Source: a virus
Lineage: Duplodnaviria; Heunggongvirae; Uroviricota; Caudoviricetes
IMG/VR virus record: IMGVR_UViG_2872180393_000002
Reading direction: 5' to 3' (one strand)
Length of the DNA: 17,175 nucleotides
The translations under genes and the position numbers were made by a program. Shown one piece after another: positions 1-17,175 of this stretch. The notes beneath the pieces are model-generated. The model saw only the letters and a program-made list of their open reading frames with translations. It was not told the DNA's origin and did no database searches. How positions within the stretch are numbered: position 1 is the first letter of the stretch; every line of letters begins with the position of its first letter.

Positions 1-300
1 TTACCGCCGTAAGTGCTCCGGCTTCCTCCACTGGTAAGTATTTTTCGCGCTCTCCCTCCGTTGTTGAGAACGGCGACGATATGCCAGCAACTCAAGGACT
101 CTTGTTCGTATGTTGCGCATATCCACGCCGTTAAGCTCAATACCGTCACGGCGCATCACCTCAGCCACCACACGCGCGTAATTTTCAGCGGTGACGCTGT
201 CCGGCTGCGTGGCCACCTGTTTGCCTGTTGCCTGACAGATTCCGGTAATACGGCGGATTACTTTCAGTAGTTCGGCGTCGGTCATGGTTATGGTTTCCAT
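1..300 (-). CDS. hypothetical 99-aa protein with basic C-terminus, last gene of the element visible in the window
   Basis: Complete ORF with ATG at 298-300 and TAA at 1-3. It lies downstream of the capsid module terminator. No family recognised by eye. Confidence 0.45.
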   Translation of the reverse strand: METITMTDAELLKVIRRITGICQATGKQVATQPDSVTAENYARVVAEVMRRDGIELNGVDMRNIRTRVLELLAYRRRSQQRRESAKNTYQWRKPEHLRR

Positions 301-463
301 AGTGATGGGGGAACAATTTCTGTAATCTGCGAAGCTGGCGATCGGTCAGACTCAAATGCCTGGCAACTTCAGTCTGAGTAGCCACTGTTCACCTCGCCCA
401 AAAATCTCTCCTCATGCGTTTTAAACATGCATCTTGCGAACAACTTTATGAAACGCGGCATAT

Positions 464-560
464 ATGTCCGGTTTGAGTGTTCAATTTTTGCGCATGTCCG
501 GTTCGCAGAAAGCGCATTTCTATATTTTTCAAATGGTTAACCTTCAGAGAAACCGGACAT
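464..560. promoter_or_regulatory. triple 10-bp repeat ATGTCCGGTT (464-473 and 494-503 direct, 551-560 inverted): candidate protein-binding sites
   Basis: Three exact copies within about 100 bp, in non-coding DNA upstream of the 99-aa gene and downstream of the capsid module. Confidence 0.35.
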
Positions 561-641
561 GGTTTCCGAAAAATTTTCATAAATAGTGAAATTCTGCGCC
601 GCTCCCGCCCCGTGGCAGGCCACCCCACCGGAAGGACCCGC

Positions 642-670
642 AAAAAAAAGCCGGATTTCTCCGGCCTTTT
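642..670 (-). terminator. rho-independent terminator ending the capsid operon
   Basis: Hairpin GCCGGA-tttc-TCCGGC at 650-665, preceded on the plus strand by A8 (642-649), which is a U8 tail on the minus strand. It sits directly after the stop of the 137-aa gene. Confidence 0.6.
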
Positions 671-671
671 C

Positions 672-1085
672 TCAGATGGTTTTCAGTATGCGATCGATTT
701 CGCCGTCATCACCCTGATATCTGCCATCGTATGCCATGCCAGGGCTTACGGCCTGCGGGCTGTGCATGTCCATAAAGTTTTCAAAGGCTGCGGTAAGCTC
801 CGGCGCAACCTTCGGGCGTTCCTGCTCTATGGTCATGTTCAGGATTTCCCGGGCATTATCGACGCTAATACATGGCACGTTTGCCATTGCACGTAACAGC
901 GGCTGATAGTCGTCAGATTCATGAAGCGCCATAATCGCATCAGTGCGCGGCTTGTCCTGCTCTTCCAGTTTGTTAAGTTGATATATAGCCTCGTAGGTTG
1001 ATAAACCTCTGTCCGCCATTGCCCGCGCTTCGGCTTTAAATTTACTCGCCAGCGGTAGCGCCATGATAGCTTCATTGATTGCCAT
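672..1085 (-). CDS. hypothetical acidic 137-aa capsid-module protein (possible scaffold or size-determination role; function unknown)
   Basis: Start MAINEAIMA at 1083-1085 with an AGGGGA Shine-Dalgarno 5 nt upstream. The longer 158-aa ORF in the track would overlap the upstream gene. Co-operonic with the E-like and D-like genes. Confidence 0.55.
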   Translation of the reverse strand: MAINEAIMALPLASKFKAEARAMADRGLSTYEAIYQLNKLEEQDKPRTDAIMALHESDDYQPLLRAMANVPCISVDNAREILNMTIEQERPKVAPELTAAFENFMDMHSPQAVSPGMAYDGRYQGDDGEIDRILKTI

Positions 1086-1096
1086 CGTTCCCCTGC

Positions 1097-1387
1097 TTAT
1101 CGCACCAGTGGCTGAACGGATACGCCAGAACCCGCAAAAGCGGCGCATTTTTTCGCGTCGGTGTCGACGCTCTCGGGCCAGTTAACGGCGGCGATATTAA
1201 ATATCCCCGTCTTGTAACACTGTGCTGATTTCTGCTTTGACGTGTCCACGGGGTACGCCGTCAGATAAACAGCCTTGCCAGATTCCTGACCATCCCACGC
1301 CTTAAACTCGCCATTGTCCGCCAGCATCAGCGGAAAAATGTACCAGCGTCGTGGCAACCTGCTGTGTGCCTGCATATAACTCAACAT
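1097..1387 (-). CDS. head decoration protein, lambda gpD-like; apparently frameshifted at an A5 run (ancestral start probably 1400)
   Basis: Motifs PLML..AWDG..KTG..WPE..AFAG match lambda gpD. The ATG at 1398-1400 has a GGGAG RBS but is in another frame, which joins the D frame if one A is removed from the run at 1334-1338. Confidence 0.7.
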   Translation of the reverse strand: MLSYMQAHSRLPRRWYIFPLMLADNGEFKAWDGQESGKAVYLTAYPVDTSKQKSAQCYKTGIFNIAAVNWPESVDTDAKKCAAFAGSGVSVQPLVR

Positions 1388-1411
1388 ATGGAGTGCCCAT
1401 AGAATCTCCCG

Positions 1412-2467
1412 TTAACCAATTTTCACAGTAACAAATTTGCGGATATCTGCCGGAACCGGCTGCGGTGCGCTGTGCGTCTGCACGTACTCAATCGCCGGAT
1501 CGCCGCTCTCAATCCAGTTTTTCGGGTAGTACATGTTTTGCGTTGCGCCCGTTCTTACCGCTTCCGGATCCATAATCGCGCCATAGGCCACCAGACCTTT
1601 ATTGCTGGTGTTGCCCAGGACAAGCAAATCAGGCTCAAGGAAATATTTTTCGGTGCCGTCGCTGTCGGTGTATTTGCCGGAATAGACGATAAGGGCCAGA
1701 TCACCCAGATAGCCTTTAAAGCTCACCACTTCGCCCAGGTTTTTACACGCCAGCTCTGCGGCGGATTCTGAACCACGGGAAAGATCGTACAGCTCGCGGA
1801 ATTTTTTAAAGCTACGTAAGGTGCGCCATACGTCAGCGCCCATAATCATGACGTTGGCGGGGCAGCTGGCCTGTTCGGCGTATAGCTCGATGTCATCTGT
1901 CGGATCATGCGTCTCTTTATTCTGCTCAGACCATTTTTTTCCTGGCCCCTGATGGACAATGCAGTTTGCCGGCATATTCCAGTCGATTTCATAGCGTTCT
2001 ATGCCTTCGCCTTCAATGATGTTTTTTCCGGTCGTGACCGCATTCACTGCCAGCCATTCCACACGCGCTTTAATGGCGTTTATCTGGCGGCGCATGTTGC
2101 CAGTAATGAGGCGCATACGTCGCCAGGTGGGGTCGTTAAGCAGTGCCGGATCTTCTCCAGCCATGCGCATGATGGTTTTTGATGGATCGATTTCGTGTTT
2201 GGGTTTCATGTAGCCAGGGCGGGTAGTGCTTGTTTCGTACCCTTTATCACGCTGAACCTGGCTACCCACCACAGGCGAACAAAACGCCGACATGGTGACT
2301 TCTTCAATGTCCAGGGTATCCAGCATGACATCTTGTGTGTTGAAGGTTGCTACTTTCGGGAAAAACAGCGTGGTAAACAGCGGACTGAATTTAAATTCCG
2401 GGATATCCCCGCGATTCAGGTACGCGAAAAGCTGGTTAGTGTTAAGTGCCGTTGCTTTGTCTGCCAT
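1412..2467 (-). CDS. major capsid protein, lambda gpE family (HK97 fold), 351 aa
   Basis: Alignable by eye with lambda gpE along its length (KFKFSPLF, PGYMKPKHE, DPTDDIE, VSFKGYLGDLALIVYSG, VLGNT, YPKNW..TGDPA). Confidence 0.9.
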   Translation of the reverse strand: MADKATALNTNQLFAYLNRGDIPEFKFSPLFTTLFFPKVATFNTQDVMLDTLDIEEVTMSAFCSPVVGSQVQRDKGYETSTTRPGYMKPKHEIDPSKTIMRMAGEDPALLNDPTWRRMRLITGNMRRQINAIKARVEWLAVNAVTTGKNIIEGEGIERYEIDWNMPANCIVHQGPGKKWSEQNKETHDPTDDIELYAEQASCPANVMIMGADVWRTLRSFKKFRELYDLSRGSESAAELACKNLGEVVSFKGYLGDLALIVYSGKYTDSDGTEKYFLEPDLLVLGNTSNKGLVAYGAIMDPEAVRTGATQNMYYPKNWIESGDPAIEYVQTHSAPQPVPADIRKFVTVKIG

Positions 2468-2672
2468 TATTCACCCCATGAGTCTGATTCATGCCAAGCG
2501 CCGCACGTAAATAGGCGCGTACCTGCCAGCCTGTTGACGGCTCAACCATCGCCAGCGGATCAAGTCCTGCCGCAATGCCCGCTTTTACGTTCTGCTGGTG
2601 GCGTTCCTTGAGCGCCTCCACGATATCGGGGCTTATGTAAACTGTCACCCCGCCTTTTTTCTCTTCTGTCAT
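2442..2672 (-). CDS. hypothetical 76-aa protein, first gene of the capsid operon
   Basis: ATG at 2670-2672 with an AGAGGA RBS. It overlaps the E-like start by 26 nt. No family recognised. Confidence 0.4.
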   Translation of the reverse strand: MTEEKKGGVTVYISPDIVEALKERHQQNVKAGIAAGLDPLAMVEPSTGWQVRAYLRAALGMNQTHGVNNGRQSNGT

Positions 2673-2699
2673 AGTCAGAAATTCCTCTTCGACTTAAAA

Positions 2700-2757
2700 A
2701 ATTATAACTGGATGTACATCCAGTTATAATTATAATCATAGTTGCATTTTGTGCAAT
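2700..2757 (-). promoter_or_regulatory. sigma70-like promoter (TTGCAC-16-TATAAT, minus strand) overlapped by a perfect 32-bp palindromic operator AATTATAACTGGATGTACATCCAGTTATAATT (2700-2731)
   Basis: Perfect dyad centred at 2715/2716. The -10 lies at 2729-2734 and the -35 at 2751-2756 on the minus strand, so the palindrome covers the -10 and the predicted transcription start of the capsid operon. Confidence 0.5.
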
Positions 2758-2944
2758 AGAATTGAGTTGCATTGCAAATTATGAAATGATTTACGGCAAC
2801 AGTAGTCACCATGCTGTTAACCTCGTAAGCAAAAGCCCGATAAGCTTCCTCCTGTACTTATCGTAAGCGCCCCATCAGCGACGTCTTGTGAAAATTGTCC
2901 TGTCTGGCAACAATCGCGCCCATCTATATTGATGGACACGAACG

Positions 2945-3619
2945 ATGAATTCCCAGACAACAAAAGATATTCCCTGCTTCCGTTCTTATTTGCCTGATGC
3001 CCTGCGTTTAAGATTTGAAGATAAACTGACCATCCGGGCCATCGCTCAGCGTCTGGGTCTCAGTCATTCCACAATACATACGCTTTTTCAGCGATTTCTT
3101 GCATCCGGTATCGCATGGCCATTGCCCGATTCAGTTTCATTCGCTCAACTTGACGCCATCCTTTATGCCAACAGAAAGAAGGAATTAACAGAGCCTCAAA
3201 TCAGAGAAGGCTCATGGCGAAAAGAACGGCGAACCAGCTATAGCCGTGAATTTAAGGTCCGTCTGGCTAAGCAGGCGTTACAGCCTGGGGCTGTTGTTGC
3301 CCGGATCGCCAGAGAACACGATATCAATGATAACCTGCTGTTTAAATGGAAAAGCCAGTACGAGGACGGCTTACTGAGCGATGATGACATACAGGAATGC
3401 ATGCCTGTCCCGGTGGCACTGACTGATACGCCGGAGCCGACCAGACCAGTTACAAATCCCTTCTGGCGTAACAAGCATGATGAGCGCCCTGAGGGGGCTC
3501 CCGGAAACGTCCCACGGTGCGAGCTGCATCTTAAATCAGGTGTGGTAAAACTGTTTGACCCTCTCACTCCGGAACTGTTACGGGCGCTAATCCGCGAAAT
3601 GAAAGGGGGTATCCGATGA
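2945..3619 (+). CDS. IS66-family TnpA (helix-turn-helix accessory protein), 224 aa
   Basis: First ORF of the IS66 unit, with an IS66 orf1-like HTH region (SYSREFKVRLAKQAL..ARIAREHDINDNLLFKWKSQY). ATGA overlap with tnpB. Confidence 0.8.
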   Translation: MNSQTTKDIPCFRSYLPDALRLRFEDKLTIRAIAQRLGLSHSTIHTLFQRFLASGIAWPLPDSVSFAQLDAILYANRKKELTEPQIREGSWRKERRTSYSREFKVRLAKQALQPGAVVARIAREHDINDNLLFKWKSQYEDGLLSDDDIQECMPVPVALTDTPEPTRPVTNPFWRNKHDERPEGAPGNVPRCELHLKSGVVKLFDPLTPELLRALIREMKGGIR

Positions 3620-3963
3620 TAACGCTGCCGACCGGTACCAAAATCTGGATCATCGCTGGCATCACAGATATGCGTTGTGGCTTCAATGGCCTGGCTTCGA
3701 AGGTGCAGAACACGCTGAAAGATGACCCGTTCTCCGGGCATATCTTCGTCTTCCGGGGCCGCAGTGGCAAAATGGTGAAAATACTGTGGGCCGATCGTGA
3801 CGGGTTATGCCTGTTCGCCAAACGCCTGGAACGGGGCCGCTTCGTCTGGCCGGTGACCCGGGAAGGGAAAGTGCACCTGACGCCAGCTCAGTTATCCATG
3901 CTACTGGAGGGGATCGCGTGGCAACATCCAAAACGGACAGAACGGCCTGGCATCCGGATATAA
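3616..3963 (+). CDS. IS66-family TnpB (orf2), 115 aa
   Basis: Characteristic IS66 orf2 sequence (MRCGFNGLA..FVFRGRSGKMVKILWADRDGLCLFAKRLE). Confidence 0.9.
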   Translation: MITLPTGTKIWIIAGITDMRCGFNGLASKVQNTLKDDPFSGHIFVFRGRSGKMVKILWADRDGLCLFAKRLERGRFVWPVTREGKVHLTPAQLSMLLEGIAWQHPKRTERPGIRI

Positions 3964-3982
3964 CCCGTGATAAAACAAGGGA

Positions 3983-5584
3983 ATGAACAATGAACTCCCC
4001 GATGATATTGAGCTGCTTAAAGCCATGTTGCGTAAGCAACAGAGTCGGCTTCGACAGTATGCCTGTCAGGTCGCGGGCTATGAGCAGGAAATTGAACGGC
4101 TGAAAGCGCAACTCGACAGGTTGCGTCGTATGTTGTTCGGCCAGAGTTCAGAGAAAAAGCGTCATAAGCTTGAAAATCAGATCCGACAGGCAGAAAAACG
4201 ACTGTCGGAACTGGAAAACCGGCTGAACACAGCCAGAAATCTTCTGGAAGATGCATCGTCAGTCACAGATTCACCTGACACCAGTCCCCCGTCAGAAAAC
4301 CCGATCGCCAGTAAGCCTGAATCCCCGGGACGAAAATCTTCACGAAAACCGCTGCCGGCAGAACTTCCCCGGGAGACACATCGCCTTCTGCCTGCTGAAA
4401 CCAGTTGCCCGGCCTGTGGAGGTGTTCTGAAAGAAATGGGGGAAACAATCTCAGAGCAACTGGATATCATTAATACCGCCTTTAAAGTTATCGAAACCAT
4501 ACGTCCCAAACTGGCCTGTAGCCGGTGTGATGTCATCGTTCAGGCACCACTTCCCCCTAAACCGATCGAACGCGGTTATGCCAGTGCAGAGTTACTTGCA
4601 CGGATCCTGGTCAGCAAATATATGGAACATATCCCTTTATATCGCCAGTCAGAAATATACGCGCGACAGGGCGTGGAGCTGAGCCGTAATACCATGGTGC
4701 GCTGGGTATCAGAAATGGCAGACAAACTCCGTCCTCTGTATATAGCGCTGAATGACTATGTTCTGGAGGCAGGAAAGGTGCACGCAGATGACACTCCGGT
4801 GAAAGTACTGGCCCCGGGGAACGGAAAGACGAAAACGGGTCGTCTGTGGGTATACGTCAGGGATGATCGTAATGCGGGTTCATCCCTGCCGGCAGCCGTC
4901 TGGTTCGCGTATTCGGCAGATCGCAAAGGAGAACATCCGCAGCGCCACCTGGCAAAGTATCAGGGCGTACTGCAGGCTGATGCCTATGCAGGTTATAACG
5001 TACTGTACGAAACGGGCCGGGTGAAGGAAGCCGGGTGCCAGGCCCACGCCCGCCGAAAAATCCATGACGAGGATGTGCGCCGTCCGACAGAAATGACTCA
5101 GGAAGCGCTCAGACGGATAGCAGAGTTATACGACATAGAAGCGGAGATACGTGGCAGTCCGGCAGAGGAACGGCTTGCAGTCAGAAAAGCCAGAAGCGTC
5201 CAGTTGATGCAGTCGTTGTACGACTGGATACAGTTGCAGAGGAAAACGCTGTCGAAACATGCGGAGATGGCGAAGGCGTTCGACTATATCCTGAATCACT
5301 GGAATGCGCTGAACGAGTTCTGTCGTGACGGCTGGGTGGAAATAGACAACAACATCGGTGAAAACGCGTTACGATCGGTGGCGGTTGGAAGAAAAAATTA
5401 TCTCTTTTTCGGCTCAGACAAGGGAGGAGAAAGTGCGGCGATCATCTACAGTCTGCAGGTCACCTGCAAACAGAACGAAGTGGAGCCGGAGGACTGGTTG
5501 CGCGAAGTGATCGAGAAGCTCAATGACTGGCCGTCGAACCAAGTGCATGAACTGCTGCCCTGGAACTTCTCGTCTGTAAAATAA
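3983..5584 (+). CDS. IS66-family transposase TnpC (DDE), 533 aa
   Basis: N-terminal leucine zipper, CxxC..CxxC zinc finger, and a DDE core typical of IS66 TnpC. Confidence 0.9.
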
Positions 5585-5641
5585 TCCTTACGCTACGTAC
5601 TTCTCGGGGCGCTTACTACTTATCGGGCTTTTTTTGGGTAC

Positions 5642-5663
5642 AAAAAGCCGGATTTTCTCCGGC
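5642..5663 (-). terminator. rho-independent terminator after ssb; adjacent to a second, 14-bp-stem bidirectional terminator (2831-2844 pairing with 5619-5632) that is split by the IS66 insertion
   Basis: Hairpin GCCGGA-ttttc-TCCGGC at 5647-5663 with A5 at 5642-5646, which is a U-run on the minus strand. With the IS removed, AAAAGCCCGATAAG and CTTATCGGGCTTTT form a perfect 14-bp stem around a 12-nt loop. Confidence 0.5.
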
Positions 5664-5671
5664 CTGTGCGT

Positions 5672-6054
5672 TCAGAACGGAATATCATCACCGTAGGGGT
5701 CATCGTCTCCCGCTGGTGGCTGATTACCCTGTGTGCCTGTGGTTTTGCGTCTGTTCCCGCCAGGGCGTGCCGCTCGGGCACTGATTACGCTGTCGGCAAT
5801 AACCTGATAACCCTGCCGCGTTTCCCCGTTCTGTCCGGTCCACTGGCTGACCTGCATCGTGCCGGATACGCTGGCAACGTCGCCTTTTTGATGTTTAGCC
5901 AGGAAGTCGGCCTGCTTACCAAATGCCATCACCGATAGCCATAACGTCGCCTGTCCGTCCTGTGCCTGGCTGCATGGCAGCGATACCGCCATACGCGCCA
6001 GCGTCATCGGTGTGCCCTTGCTGGTCTGTTTTACCTGCGGGTCGTCCACCAACC
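5672..6054 (-). pseudogene. ssb: single-stranded DNA-binding protein, C-terminal 128 codons; gene interrupted by IS600-like copy A
   Basis: OB-fold core resembling E. coli SSB (W..V..FGK.A...KG...W) and the canonical acidic tail DDDPYGDDIPF. The N-terminus of the 143-aa ORF in the track is read through from the IS end. Confidence 0.8.
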
Positions 6055-6118
6055 TGAGGTAGCCTGAGTTTAACGGACACTCCTTCCTGAAATAGAATGG
6101 CATCAGAAGGAGCTAATA

Positions 6119-6421
6119 ATGAGCAGAAAAACCCAACGTTACTCTAAAGAGTTCAAAGCCGAAGCTGTCAGAACGGTTCTTGAAAATCAACTTTCGATCA
6201 GTGAAGGCGCTTCCCGATTATCCCTTCCTGAAGGCACTTTAGGACAATGGGTTACCGCCGCCAGAAAAGGGCTCGGTACTCCTGGTTCCCGCACGGTGGC
6301 TGAACTGGAATCTGAAATTCTGCAACTGCGTAAGGCGTTAAATGAAGCTCGCCTTGAGCGAGATATATTAAAAAAAGCAACAGCGTATTTTGCACAGGAG
6401 TCGCTGAAAAATACGCGTTAA
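6119..6421 (+). CDS. IS3-family OrfA (HTH), IS600-like
   Basis: 100-aa ORF with an IS3-type HTH and leucine zipper, identical in all three copies. Confidence 0.9.
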   Translation: MSRKTQRYSKEFKAEAVRTVLENQLSISEGASRLSLPEGTLGQWVTAARKGLGTPGSRTVAELESEILQLRKALNEARLERDILKKATAYFAQESLKNTR

Positions 6422-6456
6422 TCGAACAATGGCGACAACAATTTCCCATTGAAGCG

Positions 6457-7275
6457 ATGTGTCAGGTATTTGGTGTATCCAGGAGCGGTTATTACAACTG
6501 GGTACAGCATGAACCCTCAGACAGAAAACAAAGTGATGAGCGGCTAAAACTGGAGATTAAGGTGGCACATATCCGCACTCGCGAAACATATGGAACCCGG
6601 CGGCTCCAGACGGAGCTGGCAGAGAATGGCATCATCGTTGGTCGTGACCGACTGGCACGTCTTCGTAAGGAGCTAAGGCTACGCTGTAAGCAGAAACGCA
6701 AGTTCAGAGCGACTACGAACCCGAACCACAATCTGCCAGTTGCGCCAAATCTGCTGAACCAGACGTTCGCTCCTACAGCACCAAATCAGGTCTGGGTGGC
6801 GGACCTGACGTATGTTGCCACACAGGAGGGATGGTTGTACCTAGCTGGCATCAAAGATGTTTATACGTGCGAAATTGTCGGCTACGCCATGGGAGAGCGC
6901 ATGACAAAAGAGCTGACAGGTAAAGCCCTGTTTATGGCGCTCAGGAGCCAGCGCCCACCTGCCGGGCTAATCCACCACTCTGATCGAGGTTCACAGTACT
7001 GCGCATACGATTACCGGGTCATACAGGAGCAGTTTGGTCTGAAAACATCAATGTCGCGTAAAGGTAACTGTTACGACAACGCTCCGATGGAAAGCTTCTG
7101 GGGAACGCTGAAAAATGAGAGCCTGAGCCACTATCGTTTTAATAACCGGGATGAAGACATCTCAGTAATACGGGAATACATTGAGATTTTCTACAATCGT
7201 CAGCGTCGTCACTCTCGTCTGGGGAATATCTCCCCGGCAGCCTTCAGGGAAAAATATCATCATATGGCTGCTTAA
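6457..7275 (+). CDS. IS3-family OrfB (DDE integrase-type transposase catalytic domain); expressed as an OrfAB fusion by -1 frameshifting
   Basis: DDE / rve-type motifs (WVADLTY..., HHSDRGSQY..., NAPMESFWGTLKNE). The frame is open upstream of the first ATG back to the slippery site. Confidence 0.9.
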   Translation: MCQVFGVSRSGYYNWVQHEPSDRKQSDERLKLEIKVAHIRTRETYGTRRLQTELAENGIIVGRDRLARLRKELRLRCKQKRKFRATTNPNHNLPVAPNLLNQTFAPTAPNQVWVADLTYVATQEGWLYLAGIKDVYTCEIVGYAMGERMTKELTGKALFMALRSQRPPAGLIHHSDRGSQYCAYDYRVIQEQFGLKTSMSRKGNCYDNAPMESFWGTLKNESLSHYRFNNRDEDISVIREYIEIFYNRQRRHSRLGNISPAAFREKYHHMAA

Positions 7276-7318
7276 AAAAAGAACAAATGGTAGTGTCCGC
7301 TATTGCCAGTACACCTCA

Positions 7319-7349
7319 ACCGTCCGTAAGCTGCTATCTGTGCTGTCAT
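7319..7349 (-). pseudogene. ssb: ssb N-terminal fragment (first 10 codons, MTAQIAAYGR), separated from the rest by IS600-like copy A
   Basis: ATG at 7347-7349 with a GAGGTGG RBS. Removing the IS and one copy of the ACC duplication restores one continuous SSB frame. Confidence 0.7.
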
Positions 7350-7544
7350 GATTCCACCTCTCCGGTTTTAACGTTGATGGTTGTTACCTGTTCCGCTTCG
7401 GCAATCTCCCGTTCTGTCAGCGTGGCAAAGTTTGCCGCTGCTGTGGTCATGAATGCGCTTATCAGGTCGGGATGTTCCTTCGCGTATCCTTCCCCGCGTG
7501 GCGGTCTATCGTTCTGATTGCCACCTTTAAAGCGTGCTCTGTCA
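7346..7544 (-). other. two candidate micro-ORFs (7461-7544, 27 codons; 7346-7450, 34 codons) upstream of ssb, the second overlapping the ssb start in an ATGA arrangement
   Basis: Open frames only. Ribosome-binding sites are weak and no family is recognisable. Confidence 0.2.
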
Positions 7545-7671
7545 TGTCTAACGCGCGATATTTCGGTTCTGTTCTGTCTCTGCGTTTTTTGAGTGATTTA
7601 TTAAATTTTCCTGAAGTGTGCATGTTTATTTTTACCCCCTCGTTTAAAAAGTTTTGAGTTGTGCCTCCCCT

Positions 7672-7887
7672 TGTCTACCTTATCTACCTTGCTGGCCCTC
7701 ATGCCAGTAATGGCGCGGCTTTCAGCGGGGTAGAGTGCTTTTATCCACTATCTACCCCGTGTCTACCTCCCTGTCTGATTCAGGTAAAATCAGGTAGAGA
7801 GGGTAGATAGTGGGTAGACAGTAAAAAAAGCTGTCTACCTAACTTAATGTACTGAATTAAATGTATTTTCCTTTGCTCAGGTAGACA
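7672..7887. repeat. iteron array, putative replication origin: 8-bp motif TGTCTACC / TATCTACC in both orientations, with a flanking AT-rich region
   Basis: Direct copies at 7672, 7681, 7749, 7760 and 7832. Inverted copies (GGTAGACA / GGTAGATA / GGTAGAG) at 7728, 7793, 7802, 7813 and 7880. The array lies immediately 3' of the primase-helicase gene. Confidence 0.6.
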
Positions 7888-7901: not shown

Positions 7902-8246
7902 TTATAAAAACGCGTCGCACTCGTCTGTTGTTATTGCGTTAGTCTGCGTTACCCCCTTAACTTTCCGCGTAATATATTCATGTCCGTAAACTTTTGCGGC
8001 AGGCTTCATAGCCTTGCCAAAGTCATTTACGTTTAGCGGTTTGCTCCTGCCTGCGTATGCCATAAACGCCAGATAGACGCGGTAAAGGCTGTTCCTGGTC
8101 GTGTACTTCACTGAATCACCACCGCCACCCATCATCAGGCCGCGCGCTTCCTCCAGAAAATTCAGGAACTGGCAAAACTCAATAACCGGATCCGTCTGTT
8201 GCTTTATTGCCAGTGCTTCATCACCGTCACGCTGTTCCAGTAGTAA
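7902..8246 (-). pseudogene. primase-helicase C-terminal fragment (about 115 codons, candidate origin-binding domain), cut off by IS600-like copy B
   Basis: Removing the IS and one TAA duplication joins this frame (LLLEQRDGDEALAIKQ...TTDECDAFL) in phase to the ORF at 9511-10923. Confidence 0.7.
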
Positions 8247-8289
8247 TGAGGTGTACTGGCAATAGCGGACACTACCATTTGTTCTTTTT

Positions 8290-9108: not shown

Positions 9109-9143
9109 CGCTTCAATGGGAAATTGTTGTCGCCATTGTTCGA

Positions 9144-9446
9144 TTAACGCGTATTTTTCAGCGACTCCTGTGCAAAATACGCTGTTGCTTTTTTTAATAT
9201 ATCTCGCTCAAGGCGAGCTTCATTTAACGCCTTACGCAGTTGCAGAATTTCAGATTCCAGTTCAGCCACCGTGCGGGAACCAGGAGTACCGAGCCCTTTT
9301 CTGGCGGCGGTAACCCATTGTCCTAAAGTGCCTTCAGGAAGGGATAATCGGGAAGCGCCTTCACTGATCGAAAGTTGATTTTCAAGAACCGTTCTGACAG
9401 CTTCGGCTTTGAACTCTTTAGAGTAACGTTGGGTTTTTCTGCTCAT
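9144..9446 (-). CDS. IS3-family OrfA, copy B
   Basis: Identical to OrfA of copy A. Confidence 0.9.
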   Translation of the reverse strand: MSRKTQRYSKEFKAEAVRTVLENQLSISEGASRLSLPEGTLGQWVTAARKGLGTPGSRTVAELESEILQLRKALNEARLERDILKKATAYFAQESLKNTR

Positions 9447-9507
9447 TATTAGCTCCTTCTGATGCCATTCTATTTCAGGAAGGAGTGTCCGTTAAACTCA
9501 GGCTACC

Positions 9508-10923
9508 TCATAAAGCCCGTGCCTTCTCAGGGTCGGTAAAGTTCGCCAGCAATCGGCGGATAATAACGGGGATTTCAGCCGCAATCTTTTCCGGTAGCTC
9601 CCTGTCTTTTTCGGCCTCACTGACGATATTGTCGAAACGGAAAATCACGCGACGACGTGCCACACCTCCGGCCCGTTCGGTGAATATCATCGGGTTGTTG
9701 TCGGTCGCCAGCACCACCGCCCTGATTACCGCCGTGAAACGCTTTTCATATTTCGGGTTAATTTCCACGGGGTCGCCGCCCGTGATTTTCTTGATGCCCG
9801 TTCCTTCGCCTGTATATTTCGGCTGGTCAGCCAGGACGATAAGACGACTCCCGACAACCTGCGCACGTCCACCAGCATCATCAAGCGATGTCATTTCAGC
9901 GCTTACCGTGTTCTGTTTCCCTGCCAGAAGGCTGGCTATGTGTGTGAATGTACTTTTACCGCTCCCGCCGTCTCCGGTGGCCTCAATAAACATCTGCCAG
10001 TCGTACCGGTTCGCCATAATCATGTAAAGCGCGGCACATATGCGCATCATCTTGCGCGGGTCTTTTCCGGCTGCGTGATCAAGCCATTTATGAAAGTTTG
10101 GCGCGTTGTCGCGGATATTCTCCCCTGGTGCTGGTGGCGTGTACTCAATGCCGTTGTGCGTGGTGATCCAGTTCTCCGGCGTGTGCGGGGAAAATTCCCC
10201 CGTTTTCAGGTTAAGCACACCATTAGTGAACGGTAGCAAATCACTGGACGGCTCGCCCATCGGGTCAGCAATAACTTTTAACGCTTCAACGGCGTTATTA
10301 ATTGCCCGCTTGCTGAATGTGGCCCCGTGTTCTGAATAAACCGCCACCATTTCGCGGCTCAGTTCCATTGTGCTGACCGGACACCATATCCCGCCGCGCC
10401 ATACGTGAACGATTTCACTTTCCGGATGCACACAAACGCCATCAAATCGACCAGCAAGCATCTGTGCGCGCTCACTGTCTGCCATCTGCGAAAGTTGCGC
10501 CTTTTGCTTTACCGGAAGCTCAATGACCAGACCATCAGAAAGATTCTGGCGTTCACGGGCCAGATATTCGCGCCAGTTCTGCACCTCCTGGCCGTGCATA
10601 CCCTCAAGATAAAAATTTGCATCCTGTACACCTGCCGCCGCCAGCTTCTGACCAATCGCCTTGATCATTACAGGCTCAAGATGTCCGGCTCTGTATATGC
10701 GTGCTGATTTTCTGCCATCCGGCACAATTTGCAGATTATCCAGTTCGGATAGCTGCTGCTCTCCAAGCCACACAGGAGGCTCATTATCTCCGGCTGTACG
10801 CGCGTCATGTTCCTGCCACTGTTTCGCGTGTGCCCAGGCATCACTACCCGCAAAGATAATTACCTCTGTGTCTTTGTGTTTTATTCCGCGTGGCTGTTTT
10901 TTTACGTTCGGTGCCAGTTTCAT
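9508..10923 (-). pseudogene. replication protein: N-terminal primase-associated region, D5_N-like region and SF3 (P4-alpha / D5-type) helicase with Walker A GDGGSGKST; truncated, with its stop codon supplied by the IS end
   Basis: Walker A and downstream SF3 motifs. The stop TGA is the complement of the terminal TCA of the IS at 9508-9510. Confidence 0.8.
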
Positions 10924-11057
10924 TTTTTACCCCTGAATACGTTAAGCATCTTTTTTATTTCCTGAATATTGGCGCGTGCTTTCTCCCTGCTGGTGGGCAC
11001 GTTACGCGGTACGGCCTGCACAAGAGAAAAATCACGGTCGAACTGATAAACAGGCAT
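10920..11057 (-). CDS. hypothetical 45-aa protein, translationally coupled to the primase-helicase (ATGA overlap)
   Basis: Open frame MPVYQFDRDF...; its stop overlaps the primase ATG. Below the ORF track's length cutoff. Confidence 0.3.
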   Translation of the reverse strand: MPVYQFDRDFSLVQAVPRNVPTSREKARANIQEIKKMLNVFRGKK

Positions 11058-11069
11058 CACGCAATCATA

Positions 11070-11219
11070 TTAGTAGCCTTCACGACGGTAGGTTACGCGC
11101 CGTTCCTCCACGCCCTTAATTATTACCGTGCCGCCGTACTTATCGCGGTAAATATCCCCGCGCATGAATTTAGTGCGAGTTTTGCCGCTGGCAGTTAAGC
11201 CAGGATATTTAAGTTTCAT
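11070..11219 (-). CDS. hypothetical 49-aa basic protein
   Basis: Open frame MKLKYPGLTASGKTRTKF... with a GGAG RBS. Sits in the operon between the 77-aa gene and the primase. Confidence 0.3.
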   Translation of the reverse strand: MKLKYPGLTASGKTRTKFMRGDIYRDKYGGTVIIKGVEERRVTYRREGY

Positions 11220-11224: not shown

Positions 11225-11458
11225 TTATTCTCCGGTGTGGGGCGCTTTATACTGGTCGTGTAATGTCTCTATTTCCTGCAACTCATTTATTACAGGCTCA
11301 AGAAGCGTTATTAATGCCGTGACAATCCTTGATTTCTGTTTATCACGCTCATTATCGCCAAATGTTTCCAGACACATTTGCAATATTTCCAACATATTTT
11401 CACTGTGAGAAAGTGCAAGAAATGCGCGGTCTGTTATTTCAATGTAAATATCACGCAT
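11225..11458 (-). CDS. hypothetical acidic 77-aa protein, first gene of the replication operon
   Basis: Bounded ORF with an upstream in-frame stop at 11471-11473 and a GGGG RBS. No family recognised. Confidence 0.45.
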   Translation of the reverse strand: MRDIYIEITDRAFLALSHSENMLEILQMCLETFGDNERDKQKSRIVTALITLLEPVINELQEIETLHDQYKAPHTGE

Positions 11459-11495
11459 AACCCCGTTACTTTATTCGTACCTCTTATAATGGGGT

Positions 11496-11691
11496 GTTAG
11501 CCAGCCAGACCCGGCATGATTACTGCCCCCAGTCGTCCATGATCCGGGGGGTGATGTCACCGGGTCTGGTGGGGCGCTGGTAACCGCTAATAGGGGTCAG
11601 GTCAGGCACTTTTGCCGGGACCGTCTGTAACGTGGATGCCGGTACCTGCTCCCCGTGGTTATCTGGTTAACCCATATACAAGGGAGACAGA
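11496..11691 (+). ncRNA. candidate IS110-type guide (bridge) RNA in the non-coding left end
   Basis: About 200 nt of structured non-coding DNA 5' of the recombinase gene, with a 10-bp stem CCAGACCCGG (11505-11514) / CCGGGTCTGG (11560-11569) and internal repeats. Based on position and structure only. Confidence 0.3.
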
Positions 11692-12915
11692 ATGACCGAA
11701 TCCAGCGATTACGAATCCGTCCAGGTCTTTATCGGCGTTGATGTCGGTAAAGATACGCATCACGCTGTTGCCATTAATCGTTCAGGTAAACGCCTGTTCG
11801 ATAAAGCATTACCCAACGACGAAAACAAACTCAGGTCGCTAATATCTGACCTGAAACAACATGGTCAGATACTTCTGGTTGTTGATCAGCCAGCTACCAT
11901 CGGTGCGTTACCTGTCGCCGTTGCCCGCTCAGAAGGAGTCCTTGTCGGATACCTCCCTGGACTGGCCATGCGCCGCATAGCCGACTTACACGCCGGTGAA
12001 GCTAAAACTGATGCTCGTGACGCTGCCATCATTGCCGAAGCTGCCCGTACCCTGCCTCACGCGCTACGCACGCTGAAACTGGCTGACGAGCAAATCGCCG
12101 AACTCTCCATGCTCTGCGGCTTCGATGATGATCTTGCCGCACAGACAACGCAGGCCAGCAACCGTATCCGCGGCCTTCTGACCCAGATACATCCGGCACT
12201 GGAGCGCGTTCTCGGTCCGAGACTTGAGCACCCGGCGGTACTCGATCTTCTCCAGCGATATCCCTCACCAGAAAAACTCGCTTCGCTGGGTGAGAAGAAG
12301 CTGGCAGCCCAGCTCTGCAAACTTGCGCCTCGTCTGGGTAAACGCCTTGCAGCAGACATAGCTCAGGCACTGGCCGAACAAACCGTCGTCGTTCCCGGCA
12401 CGAATGCCGCTGCCGTAGTACTGCCACGTCTGGCACTCCAGCTCATCACGCTGCGTAAGCAAAGAGACGAGGTGGCGCTTGAGGTAGAACAGCGAGTTCT
12501 TGCTCACCCTCTTTACCCGGTCCTGACCAGTATGCCCGGAGTCGGTGTCAGGACCGCAGCCAGACTCCTCACCGAGGTCGCCTGCCGCGCCTTCGCCTCT
12601 GCCGCACATCTCGCTGCTTATGCTGGCCTTGCGCCGGTAACTCGGCGATCCGGCTCGTCAATACGCGGTGAGCATCCCTCGCGACGGGGTAATAAAGCTC
12701 TCAAACGGGCGTTGTTCCTGTCGGCCTTCGCCGCGCTCAGGGATCCGCTCTCCAGGGCTTACTACACCCGCAAAATGAGTCAGGGAAAACGACACAATCA
12801 GGCGCTTATCGCCCTGGCGAATACGGGCCGCGAATACAGCAACACAACCGGACGGGCAATGGTTACGCGCTTCGCGTTCAGTCCAGGCGGTGACGTGGAT
12901 GATTTGGGACTCTGA
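11692..12915 (+). CDS. IS110-family recombinase/transposase (N-terminal DEDD RuvC-like domain, C-terminal Tnp domain), 407 aa
   Basis: N-terminal IGVDVGKDTHH motif, helix-hairpin-helix MPGVGVRTAARLL, and C-terminal RRSGSSIRGEH..ALKRALFLSAF serine motif. AGGGAG RBS. Confidence 0.9.
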   Translation: MTESSDYESVQVFIGVDVGKDTHHAVAINRSGKRLFDKALPNDENKLRSLISDLKQHGQILLVVDQPATIGALPVAVARSEGVLVGYLPGLAMRRIADLHAGEAKTDARDAAIIAEAARTLPHALRTLKLADEQIAELSMLCGFDDDLAAQTTQASNRIRGLLTQIHPALERVLGPRLEHPAVLDLLQRYPSPEKLASLGEKKLAAQLCKLAPRLGKRLAADIAQALAEQTVVVPGTNAAAVVLPRLALQLITLRKQRDEVALEVEQRVLAHPLYPVLTSMPGVGVRTAARLLTEVACRAFASAAHLAAYAGLAPVTRRSGSSIRGEHPSRRGNKALKRALFLSAFAALRDPLSRAYYTRKMSQGKRHNQALIALANTGREYSNTTGRAMVTRFAFSPGGDVDDLGL

Positions 12916-13149
12916 CGCACCAAAGGCGATAAAGCGCCAGAGAAAGGCGGTTTGAGAATGTACAAGGGTAGGGGTAGTAGCCATGTCGGCAGCCTCCTTG
13001 ATTGATGGAATGTAACCACCGCCGGAGGTCCTAAGCTCGCTGGCGGTGGACTGTACAGGGTTAGGACTACTGGCAATCAAGGGAACCAGCCTACCCGAAG
13101 GTAGCCCCATACAGCCCACCATTGTATAGGTGTGCGTGTGCGTCGATAC

Positions 13150-13171
13150 AAAAAAAGACGCGTGCGGCGTC
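13150..13171 (-). terminator. candidate rho-independent terminator on the minus strand inside a roughly 500-bp non-coding, structured region
   Basis: Hairpin GACGC-gtgcg-GCGTC at 13157-13171, preceded on the plus strand by A7 (13150-13156), which is a U7 tail on the minus strand. Confidence 0.3.
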
Positions 13172-13432
13172 TGTATCGCCTCGATTGTCAGCGGGGTCCT
13201 AATCCCGGCACCCGTTTTATAAGGTGCACGCGAATCATAGCCTTGGCTGGCAGTGGCGATCAACTGGTTTTTCATACCCGCTTTATTCAGGTTGTGCGAG
13301 TCCCGCCCTTGCAGGTGTGTGGTATGATTTAACATAGCTACCTCGATACTGTTGCTATCGTTGGTGGTTAGACGCCCTGCATGTGTTGCGAGCACTGCGG
13401 GGCGTTGCTTAATTTGAGTGACAAAACTCAAA

Positions 13433-13540: not shown

Positions 13541-13738
13541 ATGTCTAGCGGTAACACAAACAACAAATCAGCAAAGAAAAATATTCGATTCCCACATGAG
13601 CTTATAGATGGGGTTTATGCCAGCGTTGAACAAGAAAAATTAACTAATCCTAGTGCTAATTTTTCCGCATGGGTCTTAGATGCCTGTGGACGCAAATTAA
13701 AATATGAACAGCGCCGGAAGGCCAAAGAATCAGAATAA
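13541..13738 (+). CDS. small 65-aa DNA-binding-like protein (ribbon-helix-helix-like pattern); candidate regulator
   Basis: GTGAGG RBS 7 nt upstream. The pattern KNIRFPHELIDGV followed by two predicted helices resembles RHH regulators. Assigned by eye only. Confidence 0.45.
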   Translation: MSSGNTNNKSAKKNIRFPHELIDGVYASVEQEKLTNPSANFSAWVLDACGRKLKYEQRRKAKESE

Positions 13739-14076: not shown

Positions 14077-14102
14077 CGTGTTTGTCATATCTGTGATACC
14101 CG

Positions 14103-14309
14103 TTAAGCAGCCGTTCCGCGTGCTTCCTGTTCGCGTTCTTTCTGCCAGGCCAACACATCATCCTCATACCATCCGCGACGGCGTAAACCAACGCGAAAAC
14201 CCTGCGGAAATTCTCCGGCGTTGATCATGCTTTGCAGCGTGCTGTCTGCCTTGATGTGGATAATTTTTTTTACTTCCTGGCGAAAGATAATTTTTCTGAT
14301 TGCTTCCAT
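14103..14309 (-). CDS. alpA: AlpA-family transcriptional regulator / excisionase-like protein (68 aa)
   Basis: Size, position next to a P4-type integrase, and the motif pattern (IHIKADSTLQSMINAGEFPQGFRVGLRRRGWYEDDVLAWQ) typical of the phage AlpA DNA-binding domain. Confidence 0.75.
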   Translation of the reverse strand: MEAIRKIIFRQEVKKIIHIKADSTLQSMINAGEFPQGFRVGLRRRGWYEDDVLAWQKEREQEARGTAA

Positions 14310-14421: not shown

Positions 14422-14444
14422 AAAAAAAGCGGCATTTCTGCCGC
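14422..14444 (-). terminator. rho-independent terminator between the 83-aa ORF and alpA
   Basis: Hairpin GCGGCA-tttc-TGCCGC at 14429-14444, preceded on the plus strand by A7 (14422-14428), which is a U7 tail on the minus strand. Confidence 0.6.
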
Positions 14445-14455
14445 TTCCAGGATTG

Positions 14456-14707
14456 TTACCGCCATTTTTGGGGCCTGCCTCCGATCTTCATAGATGCCGG
14501 ACGTACGACCTTATCAATACTTACCGCCAGATTTCTGGAAGCGCCACGGGATACCAGAAAATCTACTACCTGTTTTTTTGATGGGGCCGTCGTTCTGTCC
14601 TCCGGATCGTAGGTTGACCAAAATTCATGCTGAACCATCAGGGCCAGTTGCAGCCCGTCGCAATTGCATCTGATATTTTTTTGCATCTTAACGGTTTCAT
14701 GTTTCAC
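14456..14707 (-). CDS. hypothetical 83-aa protein between int and alpA
   Basis: Open frame ended by the terminator above. No family recognised. Confidence 0.35.
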   Translation of the reverse strand: MKHETVKMQKNIRCNCDGLQLALMVQHEFWSTYDPEDRTTAPSKKQVVDFLVSRGASRNLAVSIDKVVRPASMKIGGRPQKWR

Positions 14708-14784
14708 GGCCTTGTCGTTAAATTTGATGCAATTATACGATGGTTTTACATGGTTTTCGTAGTTTTTACTGGTTTTCTGTACAG

Positions 14785-15552
14785 CTACACGGCTCGGATA
14801 CCCCTTTTACCACTGGCGAGGGTTACGCCCGTCGCCGCAGCCTCGACAAATTCGCCCCACCAGCGCATCAGCACGATGCGTTTTTCTATGTAGTTGCTCC
14901 GGTTGTATGCCCGTCTAACTTCGTTGGTGTCGACGTGGGCAAGTGCCGCCTCTATTACGTCCGGCTCGAATCCTTCCTCGTTCGCTGCTGTGCTGAATAT
15001 GGCGCGTAATCCATGAGACACCAGCACGCCAGCGAATCCCATACGCTGCAATGCTGCGTTAGCGGTCTGGCTGTTCATCGGCTGCTGTGGGTCTTTCAGA
15101 CTTGGGAAAACGTAATTGCGGTGGTGGCTGATTGGTTTCATGGCCTCCAGCACCGCCATAGCCTGACCGGAAAGCGGGATAACGTGATCCCTGCGCATCT
15201 TCATGCGTCCTGCAGGTATCGTCCATTGCTTCGCGTCCAGGTTGATTTCATCCCACCGCGTTGATGACGCTTCGGCGGGACGGGTTACGGTCAGTAACTG
15301 CCATTCAATCAGTAATCTGGTCTGCCGTTCTGTTGCCGATACTGATAAAGCCTGCATAAGCTCCGGCAGCTGTTCGGGGCGGATTGTTGGCATATGTTTT
15401 TTTACAGGTGAGGGAAACGCCTTACGCACATTCATAGCCGGATTGGCATCAATCAGCCCACTGTTGGCGGCGTAATCCATTACCTCATTAACGCGCTGTA
15501 AAACCCGCTTGAGTGTTTCCAGGTTGCCGCGCTCCTTGATGGGTGTAAGCAC
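14785..15552 (-). pseudogene. int: tyrosine integrase (P4-type), C-terminal catalytic part; gene interrupted by IS600-like copy C
   Basis: Catalytic-domain motifs HGLRAIFST (H-x-x-R) and RAYNRSNY (tyrosine nucleophile). The 5' end abuts the IS at 15552/15553. Confidence 0.85.
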
Positions 15553-15616
15553 TGAGGTAGCCTGAGTTTAACGGACACTCCTTCCTGAAATAGAATGGCA
15601 TCAGAAGGAGCTAATA

Positions 15617-15919
15617 ATGAGCAGAAAAACCCAACGTTACTCTAAAGAGTTCAAAGCCGAAGCTGTCAGAACGGTTCTTGAAAATCAACTTTCGATCAGT
15701 GAAGGCGCTTCCCGATTATCCCTTCCTGAAGGCACTTTAGGACAATGGGTTACCGCCGCCAGAAAAGGGCTCGGTACTCCTGGTTCCCGCACGGTGGCTG
15801 AACTGGAATCTGAAATTCTGCAACTGCGTAAGGCGTTAAATGAAGCTCGCCTTGAGCGAGATATATTAAAAAAAGCAACAGCGTATTTTGCACAGGAGTC
15901 GCTGAAAAATACGCGTTAA
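15617..15919 (+). CDS. IS3-family OrfA, copy C
   Basis: Identical to OrfA of copies A and B. Confidence 0.9.
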   Translation: MSRKTQRYSKEFKAEAVRTVLENQLSISEGASRLSLPEGTLGQWVTAARKGLGTPGSRTVAELESEILQLRKALNEARLERDILKKATAYFAQESLKNTR

Positions 15920-15954
15920 TCGAACAATGGCGACAACAATTTCCCATTGAAGCG

Positions 15955-16815
15955 ATGTGTCAGGTATTTGGTGTATCCAGGAGCGGTTATTACAACTGGG
16001 TACAGCATGAACCCTCAGACAGAAAACAAAGTGATGAGCGGCTAAAACTGGAGATTAAGGTGGCACATATCCGCACTCGCGAAACATATGGAACCCGGCG
16101 GCTCCAGACGGAGCTGGCAGAGAATGGCATCATCGTTGGTCGTGACCGACTGGCACGTCTTCGTAAGGAGCTAAGGCTACGCTGTAAGCAGAAACGCAAG
16201 TTCAGAGCGACTACGAACCCGAACCACAATCTGCCAGTTGCGCCAAATCTGCTGAACCAGACGTTCGCTCCTACAGCACCAAATCAGGTCTGGGTGGCGG
16301 ACCTGACGTATGTTGCCACACAGGAGGGATGGTTGTACCTAGCTGGCATCAAAGATGTTTATACGTGCGAAATTGTCGGCTACGCCATGGGAGAGCGCAT
16401 GACAAAAGAGCTGACAGGTAAAGCCCTGTTTATGGCGCTCAGGAGCCAGCGCCCACCTGCCGGGCTAATCCACCACTCTGATCGAGGTTCACAGTACTGC
16501 GCATACGATTACCGGGTCATACAGGAGCAGTTTGGTCTGAAAACATCAATGTCGCGTAAAGGTAACTGTTACGACAACGCTCCGATGGAAAGCTTCTGGG
16601 GAACGCTGAAAAATGAGAGCCTGAGCCACTATCGTTTTAATAACCGGGATGAAGCCATCTCAGTAATACGGGAATACATTGAGATTTTCTACAATCGTCA
16701 GCGTCGTCACTCTCGTCTGGGGAATATCTCCCGGCAGCCTTCAGGGAAAAATATCATCAGATGGCTGCTTAAAAAAAGAACAAATGGTAGTGTCCGCTAT
16801 TGCCAGTACACCTCA
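15955..16815 (+). pseudogene. IS3-family OrfB, copy C, frameshifted about 14 codons before the normal stop by a 1-bp deletion; the frame reads out of the IS to 17175
   Basis: CTCCCGGCAG here versus CTCCCCGGCAG in copies A and B. The DDE core lies upstream of the lesion and is intact. Confidence 0.8.
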
Positions 16816-17175
16816 CACCTCAACGAACCTTCGGGTGGTGAGGGTATCTATTGGCGTGTTGCCGATGAACGGGAATACATATTTATCCAGCGAACGCCAG
16901 ATATCTTTAATCGTGTTGGGGGCCAGATTCTGGCTGATTTTCACCTGGTACCATGCCGCCGCCACATTTTCGACTTCGGGCCTCTGTCTCTCTTTTTTGC
17001 CTCTCGTGGTCCTGCGGGTCAGTTCCGGCACGAATTAACGCCCTGTACTCGCTACGGCGTTTTCTGGCATCAGCCAGGGAAACATCTTCAAGCGATCCAA
17101 AACTCAGCAATATTCTTTTTTTGTCCGATGGTCGGTAGTAGGAAAATCTCCAGAGTTTTGATCCAGACGGTTTGA
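16816..17175 (-). pseudogene. int: tyrosine integrase N-terminal part (partial at the window edge), with an internal frameshift near 16975-17005
   Basis: Two overlapping frames carry consecutive integrase N-terminal homology: ..GSKLWRFSY..SLEDVSLADARKRR..GTDPQDHER, then ..NVAAAWYQVK..YVFPFIGNTPIDTLT. They switch near a T6 run at 16993-16998. Confidence 0.75.

Follow-up and report, generated by a model that had tools for sequence, protein, structure and literature searches.

EcCICFT073 is the prototype Gram-negative cos-type phage-inducible chromosomal island (PICI) (PMC6092414; PMC6739421). Its genes c1499 and c1500 encode a capsid protein and a head decoration protein (PMC6092414). Two cos sites have been reported for it, and rppA is its gene c1503 (PMC6739421). 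Across Gram-negative PICIs, the replication zone consists of primase, single-stranded DNA-binding protein (SSB), and DUF5906, and a capsid gene is the commonest late gene, present in 21 of 29 reference islands (PMC10111431). "Capsid morphogenesis" is counted among the five PICI core components (PMC10085698). We analyzed a 17,175-nucleotide stretch of viral DNA, IMG/VR record IMGVR_UViG_2872180393_000002 (the window), which carries a satellite interrupted by insertion sequences (ISs). From sequence comparison, we put at about 0.9 the probability that this element is a defunct EcCICFT073-type Gram-negative PICI, sited at proL (tRNA-Pro)/yejM of an IS-rich Escherichia/Shigella chromosome. The satellite family is already described and very common, and the window copy is an ordinary decayed member of it.

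The satellite occupies the minus strand, with its gene order running from 17175 to 1, and five IS copies break it: ISSfl3, three copies of IS600, and ISEc20. A first-pass annotation of the window had proposed that removing five ISs would yield a compact, co-directional element of about 9 kb. Excision left 9,253 bp, and the gene order listed at the time (int, orf83, alpA, a control region, orf77 and the genes behind it, primase-helicase, origin, ssb, and capsid module) was recovered once the ISs were gone. Nearly all genes are indeed on the minus strand, but a YlcI/YnfO-like gene lies on the opposite one. The IS-free window aligned continuously with EcCICFT073 over 3,265 bp at 92.5% identity (orf77 to ssb), and the capsid module did so at 87.6% over 2,373 bp. 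Both elements keep one gene order from the icd-like region through the orf92-like gene, SSB, the phage lambda E- and D-like (E/D) genes, c1501, and the cos site to c1504. We take the 1.380–1.389 Mb segment of the CFT073 chromosome to be EcCICFT073 because its capsid and decoration genes are the published c1499 and c1500. Its genes run icd-like, small open reading frames (ORFs), DUF4222, 584-aa primase, small ORF, SSB, PerC, 68-aa ORF, major capsid, head decoration, and then ORFs of 137, 144, and 93 aa.

Profile hidden Markov model searches of the reconstructed proteins backed the integrase, the D5-type primase-helicase, SSB, Phage_cap_E, and the head decoration protein D, and backed AlpA weakly. 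With these core genes and a chromosomal distal flank, the earlier identification of a satellite holds. Of the label "P4/PICI-type" given with it, the PICI half is sustained by the gene-for-gene match to EcCICFT073, whereas the P4 half falls for want of sid, psu, delta, and epsilon. The SSB and E/D capsid genes had been set apart as an oddity. That view has to be given up, because these genes are published standard content of Gram-negative PICIs (PMC6092414, PMC10111431, PMC10085698). EcCICFT073 already carries them, so they are typical of the family and the norm for EcCICFT073-type PICIs. The locus is chiefly of value for annotation.

The replication module opens with orf77 (11225–11458, minus strand; PHROG_2196, E = 1.2e-33), the first gene past the ISEc20 site, which has 77-aa homologues in EcCICFT073 and other PICIs. 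Behind it lies a DUF4222 gene (10920–11219, minus strand), now split into orf49 and orf46 and recognized on the truncated ORF (Pfam DUF4222, 4.8e-13). The intact gene encodes 99 aa in a sibling locus, L008 (CP119446.1). The primase-helicase gene pri-rep (7902–10923, minus strand) encodes 584 aa after removal of IS600 copy b (8247–9513), the same length as the EcCICFT073 protein. It matched Pfam D5_N (3.8e-15), DUF5906, and Pox_D5, as well as PHROG_864 "DNA primase" (7e-172). Directly 3′ of pri-rep, at 7672–7887, lies a replication origin with eight GGTAGAYA iterons in both orientations. All GGTAGAYA sites of the window fall in this segment, which starts 15 bp from the pri-rep stop, against 0.58 expected by chance window-wide. 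The iteron origin proposed in the first-pass annotation is borne out by this cluster 3′ of the primase gene, and the PICI origin has been mapped to the same position, 3′ of the replication gene, in EcCICFT073 (PMC6092414). Further on, orf92 (7346–7624, minus strand), upstream of ssb, is frameshifted by a 1-bp deletion at 7496 that may be a homopolymer assembly error. The SSB gene itself (5672–7349, minus strand; Pfam SSB, 4.8e-17) encodes 136 aa once IS600 copy a (6055–7321) is removed. An intrinsic terminator of repeat family D3 follows ssb (5642–5665, minus strand; −14.2 kcal/mol). A second hairpin is split by ISSfl3, and its restored fold has −24.3 kcal/mol.

At the opposite end of the element, a tyrosine integrase pseudogene (14785–17175, minus strand) is split by IS600 at 15553–16815 and carries a 14-bp deletion. 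It matched Pfam Phage_integrase (5.7e-29) and Phage_int_M (1.7e-24), and the reconstructed frame of 326 aa shares 98% identity with the integrase of locus L013, which is intact at 413 aa, in an alignment of 312 aa. Between int and alpA lies a small conserved ORF (14456–14707, minus strand) of 83 aa, read from a GTG, for which Pfam and PHROG gave no match; a 76-aa gene is called at the same place in the related loci L012, L014, L015, and L016. The AlpA-type regulator/excisionase (14103–14309, minus strand; 68 aa) matched PHROG_66 "excisionase and transcriptional regulator" (5.5e-7). It resembles P4 Vis (31% identity, 4e-7) and the AlpA of roxA-site PICIs (∼3e-6). A putative regulator of this type adjoins int in the same orientation, and its sequence likenesses make a weak but consistent case. 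Thousands of assemblies contain this exact AlpA sequence, which has entries in 10,505 blocks of the assembly collection.

The control region contains the YlcI/YnfO-like small gene (13541–13738, plus strand; PHROG_949, 3e-26; Pfam DUF3950; so annotated in RefSeq relatives), which is divergent from the remainder of the element. Next comes an RNA immunity region of the P4 CI/seqA type (13039–13227, minus strand), made up of an isrK-like RNA (13151–13227, minus strand) and a C4 antisense RNA (13039–13126, minus strand). Both RNAs were above the Rfam gathering scores: the region scored 78.6 bits with RF01695 (gathering 45) and 64 bits with RF01394 (gathering 50). C4 and isrK profiles also match several Gram-negative PICIs (PMC10111431). 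The two RNAs lie inside an ORF that matches Phage_ASH (1.4e-13), upstream of the icd-like ORF, and show a weak match to the P4 cI region. In relatives, PGAP names this ORF "ash family protein". The name probably overlies RNA genes, as for P4 cI, and protein annotation over C4/isrK RNAs has been noted earlier for Gram-negative PICIs (PMC10111431). The Icd-like ORF (12821–12984, minus strand) has lost its last codons in a 312-bp deletion and is fused into the ISEc20 remnant; it measures 63 aa in L008 and is called "host cell division inhibitor Icd-like" in RefSeq relatives.

Several of these genes recall P4, and a decayed P4-like satellite, hijacking a P2-type helper via Sid, Psu, and Delta, would share them. 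The integrase is 32% identical to P4 Int, AlpA resembles Vis, and the helicase part of the primase shares 40% identity (2e-103) with residues 324–762 of P4 alpha. A D5-type helicase domain, octamer iterons, and C4/CI-type RNA immunity are likewise found in P4, and the Phage_ASH match speaks for the same reading. We compared all P4 proteins with the IS-free sequence by tblastn; the matches were Int, the helicase part of alpha, Vis, and the cI-RNA region. Sid, Psu, Delta, Epsilon, Cnr, Gop, Beta, and cII gave matches at chance level only, with E-values of at least 0.046 (best values: Sid 0.65, Delta 1.2, Psu 3.8, Epsilon 0.39). P4 membership was rejected on this result. The N-terminal primase third of alpha is also unmatched, and the iterons are GGTAGAYA here versus TGTTCACC in P4. 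The cos site is lambda-like, not P2/P4-like, and the window carries SSB and a lambda E/D-like late module. Uninterrupted relatives likewise lack the P4 genes. We therefore consider a P4-like origin highly improbable and retain the EcCICFT073-type PICI.

The capsid module starts with a small conserved ORF upstream of the capsid gene (2442–2672, minus strand; PHROG_3255, 4e-35), which is 68 aa in relatives and 76 aa here as the result of a 1-bp deletion at 2478. The lambda E-like major capsid homologue (1412–2467, minus strand; 351 aa; Pfam Phage_cap_E, 2.8e-48) is 90% identical to EcCICFT073 c1499 and 43% identical to lambda gpE. This capsid gene is intact, while the lambda D-like head decoration gene behind it, the c1500 homologue (1097–1400, minus strand), is frameshifted in the window copy by a 32-bp deletion (HDPD, 9.4e-15 on the 96-aa remnant). 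There follow a 137-aa protein (672–1085, minus strand; PHROG_1999, 1.7e-59) that is 88% identical to c1501, an intrinsic terminator (644–667, minus strand; −19.8 kcal/mol), and the last gene (1–300, minus strand; 99 aa; PHROG_1561, 6.5e-49), which is 67% identical to c1504. The 137-aa protein gave a weak PHROG_53 match (1e-9) to the C-terminus of a head maturation protease, the scaffold-bearing part. Homology to the lambda Nu3 scaffold is no more than a lead, since no BLAST similarity to lambda C or Nu3 was found despite that match. Some RefSeq records label the homologue "phage head-tail connector protein".

Members of the family carry the E-like, D-like, and 137-aa genes as conserved cargo, with no portal, protease, or terminase. 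We think it very unlikely that this trio forms a capsid-remodeling or helper-interference device in EcCICFT073-type PICIs. In published work, loss of c1499 or c1500 left interference unrelieved, and the capsid gene was dispensable for transfer; our literature search on the function of PICI capsid and decoration genes gave nothing past the 2018 deletion result. E and D homologues and a lambda-like cos would also be expected if part of a lambdoid prophage had been fused to an integrative island of other origin. The capsid protein is, however, far from lambda gpE at the identity given above, and the gene order E-D is the reverse of lambda D-E. Genes for Nu1/A, portal, tail, or lysis are absent, and the block from int to the last gene is kept as an 11-kb unit bounded by attachment (att) sites in many genomes. 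Pfam and PHROG scans of all plausible ORFs of the window likewise revealed no tail, holin, portal, or head-tail adaptor gene, and 8.6 kb of distal flank has none either. Such a fusion is scarcely credible, and we keep to a PICI with its own short late module.

The lambda-like cos site lies at 566–640 on the minus strand. It comprises a cosQ-like sequence, GGGTCCTTCCGGTG (639–626), a variant cosN, GGGCGGGAGCGG (610–599), and an I1-like box (588–566). We identified the variant cosN by reading the sequence and by alignment to the lambda and CFT073 cos sites. The canonical lambda 12-mer, GGGCGGCGACCT, was not found at the cos position; conservation with lambda extends to the cosQ-like and I1-like boxes. 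In EcCICFT073, rppA is flanked by two lambda-type cosN in inverted orientation (L007, 7559–7570 and 8298–8309). The cos of the window is a hybrid: its upstream half resembles EcCICFT073 cos1 and its downstream half cos2 reversed, and the rppA that lies between them is gone. Neither rppA nor terS adjoins cos, and the rppA region of CFT073 has no counterpart in the window. E. coli FDAARGOS_943 (L001) has the same rpp-less, single-cos arrangement and matches all of window positions 2–2862 (100% coverage) with 93% identity. Because of this shared arrangement, we read it as an allelic variant and not as decay. Of the phage cos regions, those of mEp460, phi458, and related lambdoid phages come closest, a likeness that hints at the type of helper. 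Downstream of cos, a 30-bp stretch at 474–503 is missing from the sibling L008.

The window does not hold the whole element, which overruns both ends. On the right, the first 103 nt of int lie beyond 17175. On the left, the window is 100% identical to CP026846.1 (L009) over 12,467 bp, and there the distal att core, TTTTAGTTATACGTTT, lies 1,145 bp past position 1. Past the left end come non-coding DNA, the att core, IS4, yejO, narP, and the ccm genes. The distal flank is thus chromosomal and free of tail or lysis genes, which on that side answers the earlier concern that the genes might sit inside a full-size prophage. The 1,145 bp between the left end and attR have no recognizable product and contain short non-coding patches common to other PICIs. 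A 143-aa ORF in this stretch (L009, 12649–13080) was rejected as a gene: its translation has a non-coding look, and the region is pieced together from short conserved non-coding stretches.

The first-pass annotation had also suggested looking for a tRNA or tmRNA attachment site. ARAGORN found neither gene in the window, but att core repeats do occur near a tRNA in relatives. The core, TTTTAGTTATACG(TTT), stands at both ends of the complete relatives L012, L013, L015, and L016, where the proximal copy lies ∼131 bp downstream of tRNA-Pro(GGG), outside the tRNA. The tRNA-Pro(GGG) was confirmed in both loci scanned with ARAGORN, and int adjoins yejM in all five of the complete loci with the exact AlpA that were examined (5/5). 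Four of these five include their distal end, and all four have the core repeated there. Restoring the deleted and out-of-window parts gives an estimated original size of ∼10.9 kb; with five IS copies and the flanks, the present span between att sites is ∼19 kb. The capsid end and the replication module were matched by megablast in ∼2,250 of 5,426 complete E. coli genomes. The int/alpA head has different partners in different strains: the E/D module, the complete packaging module of a capsid-forming PICI (cfPICI), or a further late module. Modular exchange among such satellites has been described (PMC10085698). In L016 (CM137271.1, 14578–16152), the same proL-site head is followed by a third kind of late module, with Terminase_2 and a 307-aa protein that has a faint Phage_capsid match.

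Repeat analysis gave three copies of a 1,264-bp element. We set insertion bounds and target site duplications (TSDs) by reading the ends and took the names ISSfl3 and IS600 from the RefSeq annotation of near-identical E. coli copies. ISSfl3 (IS66 family; tnpA, tnpB, tnpC; 2863–5616, plus strand) has the 8-bp TSD TACTTATC and the ends GTAAGCGCCCC...GGGGCGCTTAC; its insertion point is an intergenic terminator hairpin. Of the IS600 copies (IS3 family), copy a sits in ssb (6055–7318, plus strand; TSD ACC) and is missing from L008, and copy b sits inverted in pri-rep (8247–9510, minus strand; TSD TAA). Copy c, in int (15553–16815, plus strand; TSD CAC), is 1 bp shorter than the other two. A single base is missing from it close to the 3′ end of orfB, so that the transposase ORF (15955–17175) runs out of the IS and through the int fragment to the window end. 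Copies a and b are inverted, lie 928 bp apart, and are 100% complementary over 1,264 nt, so that they could invert the origin segment; the segment between them is not inverted and is collinear with EcCICFT073. The fifth copy, ISEc20 (IS110 family; 11461–12820, plus strand; 99.6% identity), has no TSD and is truncated at its 3′ end, with 1,360 of its 1,459 bp kept and the last 99 bp gone.

Four IS copies with intact ends and TSDs therefore lie where they had been placed. The further claim that the pre-insertion sequence can be reconstructed exactly holds for the three IS600 sites but not for the ISEc20 site, int, the decoration gene, DUF4222, or orf92. For all three IS600-excised junctions, 80-bp probes aligned ungapped, in a single block, with uninterrupted relatives. 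The junction at 6055 in ssb matched the empty site of L008 at 80 of 80 positions, and that of copy c aligned ungapped to L012, L013, L015, and L016. Excision also restores the primase (584 aa) and SSB (136 aa) frames. An unrelated cfPICI of E. coli ESDR8 (L002, 12474–13943) has ISEc20 at the homologous junction, directly before the start codon of orf77. That cfPICI occupies a different chromosomal site, and the flanks are ∼84% identical whereas the IS is 99.6% identical. We considered ISEc20 as a satellite-specific IS and rejected the idea: the junction search gave just this one E. coli record with the same junction. Many ISEc20 copies sit in unrelated genes and have a few flank bases in common, a distribution that points to ordinary IS110-type, sequence-directed targeting.

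Small lesions add to the insertions. At the ISEc20 site, the 312-bp deletion relative to L008 took the 99 bp of IS and ∼213 bp of satellite DNA, in which L008 has the last part of the icd-like ORF and a gene of 73 aa. The int genes of L013 and L015 are intact, and aligning the window with them at the nucleotide level showed the missing 5′ end and the 14-bp deletion, which comes on top of the IS600 and shifts the frame. The 32-bp deletion in the decoration gene was seen by alignment with the 111-aa genes of CFT073 and L013, and DUF4222 has a G-to-T nonsense change at 11072. The window and L008 have in common ISSfl3, ISEc20, the pri-rep copy of IS600, and the loss of 32 bp from the decoration gene. 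Specific to the window genome are the IS600 in ssb, the truncation of ISEc20, and the DUF4222 nonsense codon. The integrase gene is split and frameshifted, pri-rep and ssb are each split by IS600, and the truncated ISEc20, together with the 312-bp deletion, cuts the replication operon from the control region. Point lesions damage DUF4222, orf92, and the decoration gene as well, and no Rpp or TerS gene lies beside cos. For these reasons we regard the window copy as a fixed, decaying remnant, predicted to be unable to excise, replicate, or be packaged.

Several points weigh against a defunct EcCICFT073-type PICI at proL. There is no small terminase or Rpp gene, as no ORF lies between the 137-aa gene and the last gene, the place at which relatives have a gene for Nu1-type TerS or RppA. 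The element consequently has four of the five PICI core components of SatelliteFinder (no TerS/Rpp), a number that the SatelliteFinder paper accepts as a "Type B" PICI (PMC10085698). With Pfam Phage_AlpA, the AlpA protein scored 17.6 bits, under the gathering cut-off of 21 bits. The single-base deletions relative to L008, at 7496 (orf92), 2478, and 1094, fall in short runs, at least one of them in a G run, and may be long-read homopolymer assembly errors, not real lesions. Last, the proximal junction of the window genome (attL, tRNA-Pro) is inferred from relatives.

We wondered whether the element might still be mobilized in trans, with Int, Pri-rep, and SSB supplied by a co-resident PICI or a helper. 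None of the origin iterons, the cos site, or the distal att core is damaged, and all would be usable, and related PICIs with the same modules are common. Against this stand ∼19 kb of DNA between the att sites and a severed regulatory circuit, and mobilization in trans is pure inference. We hold it to be a poor prospect and continue to treat the copy as defunct.

How an intact element would work can be carried over by homology from the literature on EcCICFT073. A lambdoid helper phage would induce AlpA, and AlpA would drive integrase-mediated excision and the rightward (replication) operon. Starting at the iteron origin directly behind pri-rep, the primase-helicase and SSB would replicate the island. 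The helper terminase would cut the concatemer at the lambda-like cos, leading to packaging into helper-made particles. A C4/isrK RNA immunity region, the counterpart of P4 CI/seqA, would lie upstream of the icd-like gene and the replication operon. In the window copy, the lesions predict failure of all these steps, of helper-induced excision, replication, and packaging as well as of interference with the helper.

Lying in an IS-rich Escherichia/Shigella genome, the locus is a textbook example of how a mobile element decays through IS activity. With its full ISEc20 and the empty IS600 site in ssb, L008 turns the decay steps into a small datable series. Because int, pri-rep, and ssb are split, IS-shattered satellites of this kind are probably missed by marker-based satellite finders, and IS excision in silico could recover them.

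Finally, we compared the locus with other known satellites. Capsid-forming PICIs have been described (bioRxiv 10.1101/2022.09.08.507074; PMC10085698), and their int, alpA, icd/DUF4222, replication, and SSB modules are interchangeable with those of the window. One alternative is that the window holds a cfPICI remnant stripped of its portal, protease, adaptor, and terminase genes; it draws on L002, L006, and L014, in which complete cfPICI packaging modules go together with these int, alpA, and replication modules. The cfPICI loci that we saw carry a Phage_capsid (PF05065) gene of their own with an HK97-family prohead protease, together with portal, head closure, head-tail adaptor and connector, HNH, terS, and terL. 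The window has none of them, and its capsid gene is of the lambda type (Phage_cap_E). Intact, att-bounded relatives (L013, L015, L012) carry exactly the E/D/137-aa module, with att soon after, so nothing large is missing from the window. We give a cfPICI remnant very little credence, and the EcCICFT073-type PICI again fits the locus.

EcCICFT073 itself differs in its integration site (the roxA-phoQ region, versus proL/yejM for the window), and the two integrases are only ∼22% identical. The window also lacks PerC and rppA and has one hybrid cos with a variant cosN versus two inverted cos sites. The proL-site PICIs with identical AlpA (L013, OZ039337.1; L015, CP000036.1; and L001) are uninterrupted or have other IS elements, unlike the window. 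At the rppA position, L013 has a Nu1-type TerS gene and L015 a 144-aa gene, whereas the window has nothing there. With the window, these proL-site islands have in common the integrase (98%), the att core, the tRNA-Pro site, and the E/D/137-aa module.

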